IMG/VR virus record: IMGVR_UViG_3300033062_001341
Coordinates: 1-64,000 of that record
DNA: 64,000 nucleotides
DNA from: a virus
Lineage: Duplodnaviria > Caudoviricetes
Strand: one strand, 5' to 3'
The stretch's first letter is position 1; each line of letters starts with the position of its first letter. The notes beneath the pieces are model-generated. The model was not told the origin of the DNA, did no database searches, and saw only the letters and a list, made by a program, of their open reading frames with translations. Both the position numbers and the translations under genes were made by a program. Of this stretch, positions 60,275 to 64,000 are shown piece after piece.

Positions 60275-61945
60275 TTATGACTCTTTACGTAAACCCCCGT
60301 CATAATGTTCGAATCTATTATGTTCAGTTGGGGTTAAAAGTAATAAACCAGGATATAATTCATCTTTTTTAACTAACTGATACATATGACTCATCCATGT
60401 TTGTTCGAATGGGTGTGCCCATGTTGTGTCTAAGAACATCTTCCGATTTCCGGTTCTACTAACTATCTGAGGCCAATTACAATAATAAACTTCACCCACA
60501 GCATAGGGCATACCTTTATGTGATAAGACAGCATCAAATTTAGTTTTTGGTGCATTTGGGTCTAAACCTTGAACAGGTAATCTGTTTTTACCTGGCCAAA
60601 ATTCTTCTCTTATATGTTGAGGTACGTTATACCAAGACCATTGAGTTCCATTGTCTCCGTAAAATTCTGAGTAATTGAGTTTTAAGAAATCAAAATTTTC
60701 TTTTTTCATAACCTCTAATGACTTAGTGTATAGGTTTGGAACAAATCTATTGAAACCGTTTCTACAAACTCCTTCATTGGGATAAAAGAACATATCATCT
60801 TCAAAGAATAAATAATAATCTAAATCTGTCGTTTCAAAATGTTCTGCTATAAATTGTCTTCCACCACATATTCCCAAATTATCTTTTTTGATATGTGTAA
60901 AATTATGCTGTTCACAAAGTTTAGCATATTCTTCAAATGTAGATTCGTCAGAAGAGTTGTCTAATAAAAACTTTTCAGTTTTGAGTAAGTAATCTTTATC
61001 ATACTCAGTCATTGATTTAATTAAAGTTCTTAATTGATTTGGGCTGTTAAATGTTATAACATATAGTCCGACTTTATTCGTATCTAAATTATTTGTAACA
61101 ACAACCTTACTTTCGTTTTTAGTTTTAAGAGTATCATTTTTTAAATCTTCAAAAAACTTACCAATTAAACCGTTTGATTCAATATCAAAATAATTTATAA
61201 TATCAGAATGTTTATAACACATGATACTGAAAATAGATTCTTCGGTACCCATATATCCTTCATCTAAGGTTGTCTTTAATAATGAATAGTAAATTCCATT
61301 AATATCACTAATAGAATCTTTAGGTCCTCCAAAGAATCCACCTCTAGCAACTTTTGTTACTTTATCACCAGCAATTGAATTTAATTTGTTGTATTCAAAT
61401 CCATGAATTTCGGTCTCAGCATCGTAAGGGAAACAAACAAACGAAAACTTAGAAATATGTTTAGATAATTTATCTAAAACTTTATCGTGAGTAAAATAAC
61501 CAGGGTGAACAGTATTTGTTAAACCACCATCAATCCAAAACAAATATTCTGAATTGAATTGGTCCATGATTTTAGCATCATTAAGTAAGAATACTTTGGA
61601 CATTACAAGAGGATTATAATTTTCTAATCTTGCTTGAGTAGATTCCTTTAACCAACCAACTTGGTTTGACCAAGATTCGTTAGTTCTAATCTTTTGAATC
61701 ATATCAAAAAACTCATTGTTTCTAAACCAATCTAATGGTCTTGTGATAAATTGAGTGTTTTCTCTACTTCTTTTACTAAAGACAAAATCTTTTAATTCTT
61801 CTTCACCAAAAATTATCATATTAGCATCAACCTCTAACAATTGTGAAAATTTATCCAAATAGTGTTGGAATGGTCTTGACCATCCTTCTTGTAATCCATC
61901 TCTACCGATATTCCATATACCGGTTACTAAAGTTATTTTACTCAT
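60275..61945 (-). CDS. Two-domain glycan-related protein: HtrL/YibB-like N-domain plus GT-A (GT2-like) glycosyltransferase
   Basis: N-domain ITLVTGIWNIGRD...YLFWIDGG...GGFFGG...EESIFS; C-domain LYVITFNSP...LLDNSSD...KDNLGICGGR...YYLFFEDD. Confidence 0.7.
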   Translation of the reverse strand: MSKITLVTGIWNIGRDGLQEGWSRPFQHYLDKFSQLLEVDANMIIFGEEELKDFVFSKRSRENTQFITRPLDWFRNNEFFDMIQKIRTNESWSNQVGWLKESTQARLENYNPLVMSKVFLLNDAKIMDQFNSEYLFWIDGGLTNTVHPGYFTHDKVLDKLSKHISKFSFVCFPYDAETEIHGFEYNKLNSIAGDKVTKVARGGFFGGPKDSISDINGIYYSLLKTTLDEGYMGTEESIFSIMCYKHSDIINYFDIESNGLIGKFFEDLKNDTLKTKNESKVVVTNNLDTNKVGLYVITFNSPNQLRTLIKSMTEYDKDYLLKTEKFLLDNSSDESTFEEYAKLCEQHNFTHIKKDNLGICGGRQFIAEHFETTDLDYYLFFEDDMFFYPNEGVCRNGFNRFVPNLYTKSLEVMKKENFDFLKLNYSEFYGDNGTQWSWYNVPQHIREEFWPGKNRLPVQGLDPNAPKTKFDAVLSHKGMPYAVGEVYYCNWPQIVSRTGNRKMFLDTTWAHPFEQTWMSHMYQLVKKDELYPGLLLLTPTEHNRFEHYDGGLRKES

Positions 61946-62819
61946 AAATTCTATTAAATTCTTCTAATATTTTATAAAAACTTTTATTTTGTTCGAACAT
62001 CTCATCAGATACTCCTGAAGGAGAATTACCCTTATACCACCATATATCAAAATGTTTTCTTATAAATAAATCTCTATGATTCACGTACATCAAACTCATT
62101 ATCTGTTCTTCATGAGGTAATCCCTCATCTTCAGTTAATACGTTCTCAATATAATTTTCAAACATATTAACTATAGTATCCCATTTGTCTCTGTGACCTC
62201 CAAACATACCACCGATGATATGAATACTTCTATCATACTCAGTATACCATTTAGAATTCACTGTTCCCGACCAATAGTTCCTATCATTCTCTTTACCTAA
62301 GATTAAAAATTTATCACCAGTATCCTCAATCACATTTTTTAAAAAATCATTACTGAACATATTACTTTCATAATATCTTGCTTGAGGATGTTCTCCAAGC
62401 AAATATTTTGGTGGAATTAACCCACAATGAGAGAATCCAGCATCAATCCAATAATAATAATCATAAGATTTATCCTCATTCCACCACCAATGAAACTTAG
62501 AATATTGAATTTCCACACATCTGTCCCCTTGTTTTATTTGGTCTACATTTTTTCTTTTACTAATTAAATCTTTAAATTTAGTATCACGAATATTAAAAAC
62601 TTGAAACTTTAATTTTTCTTCTGAAATTTTATTATCTGTATAAAAAAATTCTTTTAATGATTCTATTTCTCTATCCGATGTATAACATAAAAAATCAGCG
62701 TCCGTCATTTTTAATAATGACAATAAACTATACCTATAATGACCATTTCTACCTGTTCTACCACCTAATTCTGTTCCGTGTAAATCACTATAAATCGAAG
62801 TTATAAATTTAACTGACAT
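61938..62819 (-). CDS. HtrL/YibB-like putative glycosyltransferase
   Basis: KFITSIY...YYYWIDAGFSHCG...IGGMFGG...HEEQIMS; visibly paralogous to the N-domain of 60275..61945. Confidence 0.6.
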   Translation of the reverse strand: MSVKFITSIYSDLHGTELGGRTGRNGHYRYSLLSLLKMTDADFLCYTSDREIESLKEFFYTDNKISEEKLKFQVFNIRDTKFKDLISKRKNVDQIKQGDRCVEIQYSKFHWWWNEDKSYDYYYWIDAGFSHCGLIPPKYLLGEHPQARYYESNMFSNDFLKNVIEDTGDKFLILGKENDRNYWSGTVNSKWYTEYDRSIHIIGGMFGGHRDKWDTIVNMFENYIENVLTEDEGLPHEEQIMSLMYVNHRDLFIRKHFDIWWYKGNSPSGVSDEMFEQNKSFYKILEEFNRIYE

Positions 62820-63555
62820 AATATTGAACGTGTTTTTTTTCTTGTTTTATTTTTTCATTTCCCTCTTCACTCTTAAATTCATTTGGAAGTTTCTTAGGAG
62901 AATATAAATTCCAATTGTATATTTGAGTGTAGAAGTTATTATACATACCATGAGAAACATCAGAATACGAATTTCTTTGCGGTGCAATTGGTAATGCGGC
63001 ACAATAACTTTGAAACTTTGGATAAATAAAATTAACAAGATACCCATCTATTGGAAAATAATAATCACCTGATTCAGTAAATGCGGTTGAAGCAATATTA
63101 AACATTTCATCATATACTGACTTGTCATAGATTAAAATATTTGTTGCAAATGTTTCAGTATGAACTACATTTTCCTTAGGAGGAAGGTTTGTGATATCCA
63201 ACAATAAATCATATTTATCACTCGAATTAAGTTTCCTATTTAAAGTTGGGGTTATATTAAACACACCAAATTCAATACCCTCAATTTGTTTTTCAATATC
63301 ATCCAAAAGGGATTTAGCGTAGGGCATGAAGACGCAATCGTCTTCAATAACCATAACTCTATCGTACCCTCTTTCTTTGGCAATTTTAATAATTTCCAAA
63401 TGAGATAAGGTACAACCCATATAACTGTTTCTATTTATCGCGTTGAACTTGTCAAACTCCCAACCAATATAATCCATCTCTTTTTTTATAAGCTCAAGAT
63501 TATCAGGTCTTGTTTCTAAGTTAACAACAAACTTTGGTATTTCATTAAATTTCAT
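62809..63555 (-). CDS. Glycosyltransferase family 25-like
   Basis: FVVNLETRPD...GCTLSHLEII...VMVIEDD, the GT25 pattern. Confidence 0.85.
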   Translation of the reverse strand: MKFNEIPKFVVNLETRPDNLELIKKEMDYIGWEFDKFNAINRNSYMGCTLSHLEIIKIAKERGYDRVMVIEDDCVFMPYAKSLLDDIEKQIEGIEFGVFNITPTLNRKLNSSDKYDLLLDITNLPPKENVVHTETFATNILIYDKSVYDEMFNIASTAFTESGDYYFPIDGYLVNFIYPKFQSYCAALPIAPQRNSYSDVSHGMYNNFYTQIYNWNLYSPKKLPNEFKSEEGNEKIKQEKKHVQYYVS

Positions 63556-64000
63556 TAACTAACGTTGTTGTGGTTTAATTGACCCGTTAACCTATCACAC
63601 CAACCTTTTGATTCTGAGTGAGGCCAAACAACCCAATAAGTAGGTAATTCTGTGGTTTGGAATTCTCTCCAAACCTTACAATATCCGTCAGGGTCTCTCA
63701 TGAAACCAGCAATTTCATTCTTATCCGCATCTCTTCTATGTAAAGTCTCGTCTTTTGCGTTATGGAATGCAACCACCCAAAAATCATAATCTTTTTCAGG
63801 AACACTTGAATAACCAACGTCAATACAATGTTTGTATATTGTTGCAAAACTATCTTTCCATTCTTCCTCTGTTTCAAAATTATAAGGACTTGGTGGATAT
63901 TGTTTATCTAAACAATGTTTGTCGATTGCTCTTCTTTCGAATAACAAACCAGAATATTTTTCGTAGTCCCTTAGTGTTCTAACAGTACCAAAACCATAAG
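63555..64000 (-). CDS. C-terminal part of a probable GlcNAc-transferase (GT60/Gnt1-like, PF11397-like); 5' end lies beyond the window
   Basis: The frame stays open past the track's TTG start to the window edge and reads YGFGTVRTLRDYEKYSGLLF, resembling the YGLGxxRTLxxYExFxG C-terminal motif of that family. The catalytic region is not visible. Confidence 0.5.
   Translation of the reverse strand, partial: YGFGTVRTLRDYEKYSGLLFERRAIDKHCLDKQYPPSPYNFETEEEWKDSFATIYKHCIDVGYSSVPEKDYDFWVVAFHNAKDETLHRRDADKNEIAGFMRDPDGYCKVWREFQTTELPTYWVVWPHSESKGWCDRLTGQLNHNNVS

Follow-up and report, generated by a model that had tools for sequence, protein, structure and literature searches.

A giant freshwater phage probably sugar-coats its own proteins, to judge from its gene content and sequence comparisons. 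The stretch of DNA analyzed here (the window, 64,000 nucleotides, bases 1-64000 of an 80,897-bp IMG/VR record) ends within the gene for a GT60-like (PF11397) polypeptide glycosyltransferase, which lies next to genes for partner enzymes and, just outside the window edge, directly downstream of four Thr/Pro-rich (PT-rich) ORFs on the same strand. We consider it fairly likely that these genes specify a phage-encoded cytoplasmic module for mucin-type protein O-glycosylation. GT60 enzymes are the protist initiators of such modification (West et al., PMC8724618).

The glycosyltransferase gene cluster

The initial annotation described four translationally coupled glycan genes at 60275-64000, and these are present on the minus strand, with overlaps of 8, 11 and 1 nt between neighbors from 60275 to 64000 (Table 1). 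The parent record supplies the missing part of the edge gene, whose full product has 421 aa (P0001) and upholds the GT60 call: P0001 matches PF11397 with an E-value of 1.7e-66 (225 bits, cut-off of 21) in a profile search and, over its full length, phrog_24687 (E = 8e-165) in a PHROG profile search. The string YGFGTVRTLRDYEKYSG in the edge gene is the conserved final motif of the PF11397 domain. In an alignment of 46 homologues D92, H94 and H229 are invariant, and G278, R281, Y286 and G291 are nearly so. The in-window portion of the gene covers the last catalytic motif and a C-terminal FN3-like beta-sandwich domain (residues ~296-421), which, modeled separately (pLDDT of 88.5), gave generic FN3-like matches (Z = 7.6). 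The AF2 model of P0001 is of high confidence (pLDDT of 94.7), and nearly all of its best ~40 solved structures in Foldseek are polypeptide GalNAc-transferases (GT27 ppGalNAc-Ts; top E-value of ~3e-10). The predicted fold is thus nearest to the enzymes that start mucin glycosylation in animals. We know of no prokaryotic or phage PF11397 protein that has been characterized.

Table 1. Features of the window relevant to the proposed glycosylation module.
Feature	Position	Strand	Remarks
Collagen-like (G-T-S)n tail-fiber-type protein	1..1032	-	runs off window start
Thr/Pro-repeat protein, 653 aa	1052..3013	-	about 388 residues of TPTNTPSE-type repeats
141-aa ORF	59878..60303	-	overlaps 556-aa gene by 29 nt; end of glycan operon
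Two-domain enzyme gene, 556 aa	60275..61945	-	N-terminal HtrL_YibB and C-terminal divergent GT-A-like domain
HtrL_YibB-like enzyme gene, 293 aa	61938..62819	-	overlaps GT25 gene by 11 nt
GT25-family glycosyltransferase gene, 248 aa	62809..63555	-	start overlaps GT60 stop by 1 nt
GT60-like (PF11397) polypeptide glycosyltransferase gene, 3' part in window	63555..64000	-	full gene 63555-64820 (L002:3555-4820)

The partner enzymes largely agree with their first descriptions. The GT25 protein matches PF01755 at positions 68-134 of the 199-position profile (E = 8e-11; 42.6 bits, cut-off of 24); 52-62% identity is kept in close relatives, and a weak homologue occurs in L381. Both genes called HtrL-like bear this name rightly. 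The 556-aa protein matches PF09612 (HtrL_YibB) with an E-value of 4e-17, as do all 24 homologues searched. The 293-aa protein had no direct match in the Pfam search, and its sequence places it as HtrL-like by profile-profile comparison of its family with the HtrL domain of the 556-aa family (hhalign, 99.65%, E = 3.7e-25), by PF09612 matches in 5 of 12 homologues and by protein-atlas look-alikes that bear PF09612; W-x-D-A-G, GG-x-F-GG and EE are invariant motifs of this family. The same 556-aa gene had been labeled GT2. What stands is a GT-A-like C-terminal domain with an invariant E-D-D motif (E382, D383, D384), while the GT2 match (E = 1.9e-4) lies at 21.8 bits, under the cut-off of 23.3, and recurs in 2 of the 24 homologues.

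The HtrL+GT-A gene is the best-conserved partner of the GT60 gene. The two are neighbors in many binned contigs and also in the phages XacN1 and Xoo-sp13, whose HtrL+GT-A proteins show 42-43% identity. Natural HtrL-GT60 fusions (P0161 and P0201, and also at L419, L441, L445 and L449) link the partner enzymes and GT60 within a single pathway. No hydrophobic or transmembrane-like segment was found in any glycosyltransferase of the cluster, including P0001 and the GT25 protein, and by sequence the enzymes are soluble. The 141-aa ORF gave no Pfam or PHROG match; its homologues in two relatives (L378, 13574-14788; L383, 1587-2825) are 56-64% identical, 405-413 aa long and contain PT-rich tracts.

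Thr/Pro-rich tracts beside GT60 genes

What would such an enzyme glycosylate? The best candidate substrates are the products of the four PT-rich ORFs, which are more tightly linked to the GT60 gene than any segment in the window. On the same strand the order is a 1474-aa LamG PT protein, three smaller PT-rich ORFs, an HNH-like insert, GT60, GT25, HtrL and HtrL+GT-A. The LamG part matches a PHROG annotated as virion structural protein, and a TATTTAT motif common to large genes of the baseplate and tail region precedes the PT genes 65508-66605 and 67661-72085. Position, PHROG match and this promoter-like motif suggest that the PT proteins are probably displayed on the virion.

The initial annotation had instead pointed to Thr/Ser-rich repeats in the window, which are present: the PT tract of the 653-aa protein and collagen-like G-T-S triplets in the translations of 1-186 and about 29407-29559. 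As substrates they fared differently. The 653-aa protein remains a candidate; its gene lies at the far end of a baseplate/tail-fiber gene block, near a baseplate wedge gene (17898-19736) and an ORF with a collagen-like tail-fiber match. The (GTS)n repeats showed no link to the glycan cluster in any comparison made here, and the main evidence comes from the upstream ORFs past the edge. The protein encoded at the window start has PHROG tail-fiber and collagen-like minor tail matches (E of ~1e-4), and its homologue in the complete relative G001, no shorter than 1806 aa, contains an unbroken run of 249 G-X-Y triplets.

Among 80 close relatives (86-99% identity) 76 loci have upstream sequence, and in every one of these 1-5 same-strand PT-rich ORFs, highly variable in number and length, lie directly upstream of the GT60 gene, usually ending ~80 nt ahead of it; in none is there a PT-rich ORF in the 10 kb downstream. 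The same arrangement is seen next to GT60 homologues of 35-55% identity, both in phage contigs and in contigs binned with bacteria, at GC contents of 0.29-0.71; in the phage contigs L377 and L382 PT-rich ORFs directly adjoin homologues of 36-40% identity. In a set that includes bacteria-binned contigs, 28 of 80 loci had a PT-rich ORF within 8 kb, compared to 7 of 119 control loci. The reverse test used viral contigs chosen solely by a (TP)5 tract or, as controls, a (GS)5 tract: PF11397 was present in 9/69 and 0/70 records, respectively (Fisher p = 0.0014), in samples that differ in contig size and are phylogenetically non-independent. The nine positive records have homologues 26% to 84% identical to P0001. 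PF11397 was absent from the other 60 (TP)5 contigs, including 5 of the 6 records with a completeness of 90% or more; hence, a PT tract alone does not imply glycosylation. Among cultured jumbo phages, those with GT60 contain (TP)4 tracts (XacN1, 5; Xoo-sp13, 8; CM1, 3), whereas the GT60-negative relatives RsoM2USA, XbC2 and 121Q have none. The GT60 identity of the full edge gene and this co-occurrence with Thr-rich repeat genes both support the earlier reading that the phage may glycosylate its own proteins.

Known systems and alternative readings

By sequence and predicted fold, P0001 shares PF11397, the GT-A fold, the invariant D-x-H and the distal His with the protist GT60 polypeptide alpha-GlcNAc-transferases (the Trypanosoma cruzi mucin initiators and the Dictyostelium pp-GlcNAcT and Skp1 Gnt1). 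A ricin-type lectin domain is likewise lacking. Like cytoplasmic Gnt1 P0001 is soluble, and the sequences beside the phage gene resemble the Thr/Pro-rich T. cruzi mucins. It differs in being encoded by a phage (with homologues encoded by bacteria) rather than a eukaryote, in its extra conserved FN3-like C-terminal domain of ~125 aa, and in the constant, sometimes fused HtrL + GT-A partner. Among solved structures, those of animal and apicomplexan GT27 enzymes (such as human GalNAc-T2, 2ffu, and T4, 6h0b; Toxoplasma GalNAc-T3, 8ujf) come closest to the catalytic domain, aligned by Foldseek over about 276-289 columns at 4.6-5 Å (E of ~3e-10). GT27 enzymes likewise have an accessory domain C-terminal to the catalytic one, and their substrates are dense Thr/Pro-rich tracts. 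However, P0001 has 9-15% sequence identity to them, belongs to a different CAZy family, carries a beta-sandwich instead of a beta-trefoil lectin domain and is cytoplasmic, not Golgi resident.

An orthologous cluster, ORF334-ORF330, is present in the Xanthomonas jumbo phage XacN1. ORF334 is the P0001 orthologue (46% identity), ORF332 is 31% identical to the 293-aa protein and the HtrL+GT-A protein is 43% identical. This cluster includes a carbamoyltransferase gene and has no GT25 detectable by BLAST, and the many annotated PT-rich ORFs of XacN1 are scattered, not directly upstream. XacN1 virions have at least two periodic acid-Schiff (PAS)-positive glycoprotein bands, for which the authors suggested the phage glycosyltransferases ORF328 and ORF334; their paper names neither a glycosyltransferase family nor PT tracts nor the stained proteins (PMC5852040). 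These bands may be other than PT-rich proteins. In virion O-glycosylation by mycobacteriophages and autonomous glycosylation by chloroviruses and giant viruses, soluble enzymes encoded by the virus act in the cytoplasm of the host on the virus's structural proteins, as we propose here, and the glycosyltransferase genes cluster near substrate genes (PMC4691112; PMC11256854). The enzymes of these viruses belong to other families; chloroviruses make atypical N-glycans, and in mycobacteriophages the acceptors are C-terminal Ser/Thr tails of capsid and tail-tube proteins. In the literature searched, neither a GT60-type initiator nor long mucin-like PT tracts are described for these viral systems.

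Could the same enzymes have another target? Gnt1 of Dictyostelium acts on hydroxyproline of Skp1, whereas Thr itself is the acceptor for the GT60 enzymes of T. cruzi. It is conceivable, though unlikely, that the PT substrates are modified on hydroxyproline, made by a phage 2OG-Fe(II) prolyl hydroxylase before the GT60-like enzyme adds sugar, giving a plant extensin-like product. Pro is as constant as Thr in the tracts, the Pfam description of PF11397 gives hydroxyproline for Gnt1 as founding member, the large prokaryotic proteins P0126 and P0127 fuse several PF11397 domains with 2OG-FeII_Oxy_3 domains, and each complete relative of the phage has three PF13640 genes. However, the 81-kb record has no PF13640 gene, those of G001 (at about 29, 153 and 162 kb) lie close neither to the glycosyltransferase cluster (~65-70 kb), from which they are far removed, nor to any PT-rich ORF, and PF13640 had no match in XacN1 or Xoo-sp13, although both possess the GT60 cluster as well as PT tracts.

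LPS/LOS core loci are the best-known setting of GT25, classically an LPS family, and of HtrL_YibB, a family of unknown function (Pfam descriptions; PMC4172580); the enzymes of those LOS loci are likewise soluble or peripheral, and the complete relatives have many more glycosyltransferase genes and sugar-nucleotide epimerase/dehydratase genes close by. The cluster could therefore act during infection to remodel a glycan of the host envelope (LPS/LOS core, capsule or other polysaccharide) or make a free glycan, with the PT genes as mere neighbors in a variable region. We give this reading little credence, because all characterized GT60 members use polypeptide acceptors, the fold of P0001 is nearest to ppGalNAc-Ts, HtrL is repeatedly fused to GT60, and the cluster genes include no recognizable polyprenyl-phosphate transferase, flippase or membrane protein of polymerase type; moreover, chance neighborhood does not explain a PT link that spans unrelated lineages and GC contents. 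Glycosylation of non-PT proteins, be they capsid or tail subunits or host proteins, with the tracts as flexible linkers, seems just as improbable. Mycobacteriophage glycoproteins are reportedly capsid and tail-tube subunits, the XacN1 bands were not assigned to proteins, and the FN3-like domain could dock on a folded partner. Against this, the globular domains of GT60-neighboring proteins differ between lineages (in bacterial contigs the N-terminal parts include stretches that resemble, by eye, twin-arginine signals or PqqD domains), the PT proteins of this phage have no BLAST homologues in XacN1, and the PT tract alone is common to all, which points to the tract itself as the recognition target. 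Modification of phage DNA in the manner of T-even phages or TET/TAGT systems, with sugars added to hydroxymethyl-pyrimidines, is very improbable. The C-terminal domain of the 556-aa family weakly matches a PHROG named beta-glucosyl-HMC-alpha-glucosyltransferase (E = 3e-5, a generic GT-A level), and, at the same generic level, 1 of 24 homologues of this protein matches TAGT (E = 4e-4). However, the sole thymidylate synthase homologue of the complete relatives does not resemble a dCMP hydroxymethylase because it has retained the catalytic Cys and, within LPFNIASY, the Asn of dUMP-type enzymes; a dUTPase is present; P0001 belongs to a polypeptide-transferase family; and Tet_JBP had no match in the record, two complete relatives, XacN1 and Xoo-sp13, in a search run without a positive control. 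That neither a transmembrane segment nor a hydroxymethyl-pyrimidine or TET gene was found argues against LPS or DNA as targets.

A putative mucin-type pathway

We hypothesize that the soluble GT60-like enzyme transfers the first sugar from a UDP-sugar to hydroxyls, presumably of Thr, in the long Thr/Pro tracts of phage proteins, and that this sugar may be a HexNAc, by analogy with characterized GT60 enzymes. The acceptors would be the products of the four upstream ORFs, including the 1474-aa lectin-domain protein, and of other PT-rich genes such as 1052-3013, possibly in fibers. The translationally coupled GT25 protein, the two HtrL-type enzymes and the GT-A domain could then lengthen or decorate the chain. 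Proteins that probably lie exposed on the virion would in this way gain mucin-like stalks that are stiff and resist proteases.

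The lead enzyme and its operon

The initial annotation had taken the gene cut by the right edge of the window for a GT60-like glycosyltransferase gene, with YGFGTVRTLRDYEKYSG as its C-terminal family motif. The complete gene, recovered from the source record (80,897 bp; CheckV completeness about 26%), bears this out. Its product, P0001, matches the PF11397 profile with 225.5 bits (cut-off 21) in two stretches, the better of which covers profile positions 95-350 of 352; relatives match positions 2-45 and 95-350, and an alignment of 46 sequences identifies YGFGTVRTLRDYEKYSG as the conserved final motif of the PF11397 domain. 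The AlphaFold (AF2) model calculated from this alignment has a pLDDT of 94.7, and nearly all of its top ~40 PDB matches in Foldseek are ppGalNAc-Ts from human, mouse, fly and Toxoplasma (E ~3e-10). These enzymes are the starters of mucin-type O-glycans. D92 and H94 of a D-x-H motif and the distal H229 are invariant in 46 homologues and are putative metal ligands. P0001 is a PF11397/GT60 member by sequence and predicted fold and a putative protein glycosyltransferase.

A search of PDB sequences with P0001 returned nothing at E < 0.01, so no GT60 structure was found by sequence. GT60 is described as the protist counterpart of GT27, the main difference being that GT60 has no ricin-like domain (PMC8724618). 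The ppGalNAc-T-like fold predicted for P0001 fits this view, and its model lacks a C-terminal ricin-type lectin domain, as expected of GT60 versus GT27. Residues ~296-421 form an extra domain that is kept in phage and bacterial homologues and is absent from protist GT60 enzymes. Modelled alone, these 126 residues gave a generic FN3/Ig-like beta-sandwich (pLDDT 88.5) without any specific match (Foldseek E >= 0.04, VIA-align Z <= 7.6). With only such generic matches, there is no support for the idea that the domain stands in for the ppGalNAc-T ricin domain as a lectin or carbohydrate-binding module. At four loci (L413:6466-6819, L414:6213-6566, L420:6425-6778 and L421:3836-4192) the best match to the FN3-like domain lies outside the GT60 ORF, and hence this domain seems able to move as a module.

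The P0001 gene and three others overlap on one strand at the right end of the window. The labels first given to these genes hold for GT60, GT25 and both HtrL-like genes, while the GT2 label falls below the cut-off. The 248-aa protein reaches 42.6 bits against PF01755 (cut-off 24), over profile positions 68-134 of 199 only. PF09612 (HtrL_YibB) is matched by all 24 of 24 homologues of the 556-aa protein and by 5 of 12 homologues of the 293-aa protein. In hhalign, the profile of the 293-aa family aligns with the HtrL domain of the 556-aa family (99.65% probability, E 3.7e-25), and the motifs W-x-D-x-G, GG-x-F-GG and EE are invariant and common to both; on profile comparison the 293-aa protein is HtrL-like. 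The C-terminal half of the 556-aa protein scores 21.8 bits against GT2 (PF00535), below the cut-off of 23.3. It has an E-D-D motif that is invariant in the family, and part of its look-alikes in the protein atlas carry PF00535. Because only 2 of 24 homologues reach GT2 (E < 1e-3), "divergent GT-A-like" is the safer name for this half.

None of the glycosyltransferases of the cluster has a transmembrane-like segment, so these enzymes should act in the cytoplasm. The HtrL+GT-A gene adjoins the GT60 gene in this clade, in many binned contigs and as far away as the cultured jumbo phage XacN1 (43% identity), and several proteins are fusions of HtrL and GT60 domains. These links place the partner enzymes in one pathway with the GT60 enzyme.

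Features of the record outside and inside the window (L002 and L003 are the rest of the record; plain coordinates are window positions unless marked)
Feature	Position	Strand	Match or remark
Collagen-like G-[TS]-S protein	1-1032	minus	
G-T-S triplet repeats (translation)	1-186 and ~29407-29559		
Thr/Pro repeats (translation)	within 1052-3013		
141-aa ORF	59878-60303	minus	after the glycan operon
HtrL+GT-A-like gene, 556 aa	60275-61945	minus	HtrL_YibB E 4e-17; sub-threshold GT2 match (Pfam)
HtrL-like gene, 293 aa	61938-62819	minus	no direct Pfam match; HtrL-like by profile-profile comparison
GT25 gene, 248 aa	62809-63555	minus	GT25 (PF01755) E 8e-11
Edge gene (P0001), 421 aa	63555-64820 (record)	minus	PF11397 "Glycosyltransferase (GlcNAc)" E 1.7e-66
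HNH-like ORF, 196 aa	L002:4877-5467 (record 64877-65467)	minus	motif HIDHIIPLS...NLQPLWKTENLKKGN only
PT-rich ORF, 365 aa	L002:5508-6605	minus	upstream of GT60 gene, past window edge
PT-rich ORF, 148 aa	L002:6674-7120	minus	upstream of GT60 gene, past window edge
PT-rich ORF, 186 aa	L002:7098-7658	minus	upstream of GT60 gene, past window edge
PT-rich ORF, 1474 aa	L002:7661-12085	minus	two LamG/concanavalin-like domains
WYL-domain protein, 149 aa	L002:13720-14169 (record 73720-74169)	plus	short PT-tract tail
Second glycan island	L002:14864-20000 + L003 (record 74864-80897)	plus	after the PT/GT region

The second glycan island encodes a 403-aa protein that matches GT1 weakly, short of the Pfam cut-off, a GT2_5+GT4 protein (542 aa), a GT2 protein (236 aa), an FkbM-type methyltransferase and a GT11-like protein whose gene is cut by the record end. 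In complete relatives it is followed by sugar-nucleotide epimerase/dehydratase genes (NAD-dependent, at 88-89.6 kb, in the complete relative G001).

PT-rich proteins as neighbours of the enzyme

Four PT-rich ORFs, which encode Thr/Pro-repeat proteins, immediately precede the operon, so that soluble virus-encoded glycosyltransferases are clustered with candidate substrate genes. For the largest PT-rich protein there is a match to a PHROG with the annotation "virion structural protein". The GT60 gene is separated from the last PT-rich ORF by an HNH-like ORF, which has no Pfam match at E < 0.05; because most close relatives have just ~80 nt there, it looks like a homing-endonuclease insertion. 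The 141-aa ORF has homologues of 405-413 aa with PT-rich tracts in two relatives (L378, L383) and is a short version without the tract in this record. The WYL-domain protein looks non-structural.

The co-occurrence of the glycosyltransferase set with Thr-rich repeat genes, which the initial annotation had put forward for testing, extends well beyond this record. Among the best 80 viral relatives, whose GT60 is 86-99% identical, each of the loci that include upstream sequence (76/76) carries between one and five PT-rich ORFs on the strand of the GT60 gene, usually ending about 80 nt before it, and no locus has a PT-rich ORF in the 10 kb downstream. Loci differ greatly in how many such ORFs they have and in how long these are (99 to 1789 aa), while the enzyme is conserved. 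The association was also found in the reverse direction, in viral contigs collected solely for encoding (TP)5, and in prokaryote-binned loci (35-69% identity, GC 0.29-0.71). PF11397 occurs in 9 of 69 searchable (TP)5 records versus 0 of 70 controls collected with (GS)5 (Fisher p = 0.0014), and a PT-rich ORF lies within 8 kb in 28/80 binned loci versus 7/119 control loci; since the samples are phylogenetically non-independent and the control sets are of other contig size, these numbers indicate a strong tendency and no formal probability. Four of the five (TP)5 records of at least 100 kb carry PF11397. The nine enzymes are 84, 68, 63, 59, 40, 36, 33, 28 and 26% identical to P0001, and the lineages at 40% and 36% have a PT-rich ORF right after the GT60 gene.

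At a dozen or so of the 80 binned loci a PT-rich ORF is the immediate neighbour of GT60 or of its HtrL partner. In translation these ORFs look like genuine proteins with N-terminal parts that are, by eye, mutually unrelated, the PT tract being the only part in common. In six binned bacterial contigs (L395, L398, L413, L420, L452 and L458) small proteins ending in long PT tracts adjoin the GT60/HtrL pair. Inspected by eye, some N-termini of binned-contig PT proteins are twin-arginine-signal-like (RRxLLQxLG...), one pair is PqqD-like and others contain Cys-rich modules, a hint at exported bacterial substrates that would be glycosylated before export. The nearest prokaryote-bin homologues (L384-L389; 67-69% identity) lie on low-GC contigs, one of 230 kb, mostly in Saprospiraceae/Bacteroidia bins. 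These contigs probably come from phages and went into the bin of the host; they hint at Bacteroidota as hosts of this phage group.

Only 4 of 50,697 phage records have the GT60 gene: those of the cultured jumbo phages XacN1, Xoo-sp13, CM1 and RAS14. There are five (TP)4 tracts in XacN1, eight in Xoo-sp13 and three in CM1, and none in RsoM2USA, XbC2 and 121Q, relatives without PF11397. XacN1 has about 16 annotated PT-rich ORFs, several of them beside tail sheath genes; BLAST found no XacN1 homologues of the globular parts of the PT proteins studied here.

The Thr/Pro and G-T-S repeats first noted in the window are present as described. The collagen-like (GTS)n repeats had also been proposed as substrates of the cluster, and we considered them for GT25 because this family includes collagen galactosyltransferases. 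The repeats contain no Lys and nothing was found that links them to the cluster, and we dropped this part of the proposal. The G001 homologue of the collagen-like protein (G001:3-5420) has at least 1806 aa with 249 uninterrupted G-X-Y triplets and extends into the terminal repeat; it is either an extraordinarily long fibre or the product of an unreliable repeat assembly. In the whole record, 12 of the 59 called genes have TATTTAT in the 60 nt before them, and 2 have its reverse complement there; among the 12 are large baseplate/tail-region genes and two PT-rich genes, but not the GT60 gene. The motif may be a late-promoter element.

Proposed reaction and alternative targets

The module is real and coherent. 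We think it fairly probable that its enzymes, encoded by the phage and active in the cytoplasm, carry out mucin-type O-glycosylation on PT-rich phage proteins. By analogy with its family, the GT60-like enzyme would start the sugar chains on these proteins in the cytoplasm, transferring GlcNAc to Thr, Ser or Hyp. The last acceptor belongs to a live variant in which a prolyl hydroxylase acts before GT60, as PhyA acts with Gnt1 on Skp1. Some prokaryotic proteins do join PF11397 to 2OG-Fe(II) oxygenase domains, and there are three PF13640 oxygenase genes in complete relatives; however, these genes are distant from the cluster, and PF13640 is absent from XacN1 and Xoo-sp13. Linkage of a prolyl 4-hydroxylase gene (PF13640) to the GT60 gene was looked for and not found, with none in this record and none adjacent in relatives; given the fusions elsewhere in the family, the hydroxyproline route keeps a low probability.

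Could the enzymes act on something other than PT-rich proteins? Remodelling of host LPS or capsule would suit the settings from which the GT25 and HtrL families are usually known, but it leaves the family of the lead enzyme, the HtrL fusions and the PT association unexplained, and we regard it as improbable. The same low expectation applies to protein targets other than the PT-rich ones. DNA glycosylation of the T-even (alpha/beta-GT) or TET/TAGT kind is unlikely. Its sole support is two weak GT-A-level matches. A pathway to hydroxymethyl-pyrimidine in DNA, by a dCMP/dUMP hydroxymethylase or a TET/JBP oxygenase, was looked for and not found: in a complete relative, the ThyA homologue has kept both the dUMP-type Asn and the catalytic Cys, a dUTPase is present, and Tet_JBP gave no match in five records, in a search without a positive control and with the studied record amounting to ~26% of its genome. 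With a normal-looking ThyA, a dUTPase and no Tet_JBP match, the DNA-modification reading was set aside. The thymidylate synthase homologue of G001 (L098:1486-2580) has 364 aa, ~100 aa above the usual length, with all usual catalytic motifs kept.

Virion glycoproteins and the reach of the module

Glycosylation of PT-rich phage proteins agrees in kind with known systems. Virion-protein glycosylation by virus-encoded enzymes is known in mycobacteriophages and giant viruses, which the proposed module resembles in a virus modifying its own proteins. To our knowledge, mucin-type O-glycosylation, with dense sugars on Thr/Pro tracts and initiation by GT27/GT60, is regarded as eukaryotic; the likeness to protist and animal initiation lies in the proposed mode of action. 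The module differs from these systems in host domain, in its FN3-like domain, in the HtrL/GT-A partner and in its candidate PT-tract substrates.

Periodic-acid-Schiff staining is positive for at least two bands of XacN1 virion proteins. The authors of that study suggest the phage glycosyltransferases ORF328 and ORF334 as the makers of these glycoproteins and do not name the stained proteins (PMC5852040, main text and Supplementary Fig. S4). ORF334 is the P0001 orthologue (46% identity). The XacN1 paper noted glycoproteins and glycosyltransferases but drew no link to GT60 or PT tracts (PMC5852040). In the literature we found nothing on GT60-type enzymes, PF11397 or PT-tract glycosylation in phages, and nothing relevant on the proteomics of Xoo-sp13, CM1 or RAS14. 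The idea is directly testable, since XacN1 is cultured and glycoprotein staining of its virions is already positive.

More tentatively, and with some doubt, we suggest that the GT60-like enzyme and its HtrL/GT-A partner may together be a system, widespread in prokaryotes and phages and so far undescribed, that places mucin-type O-glycans on Pro/Thr linkers in the cytoplasm. Many PT linkers in phage fibres and exported bacterial proteins would then be sugar-coated, and eukaryotic GT60/GT27 would descend from, or share an ancestor with, the prokaryotic module.

In summary, a GT60-family enzyme stands beside mucin-like PT-repeat proteins here. The enzyme occurs in an abundant clade of ~320-kb freshwater phages and in cultured jumbo phages of Xanthomonas and Stenotrophomonas, and further copies lie on contigs that were binned with many bacterial phyla. 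Should it act as its family does, the PT "linkers" of phage fibres would be glycosylated stalks, with a bearing on phage stability, host recognition and antigenicity, and the origin of mucin-type glycosylation would become a tractable question.
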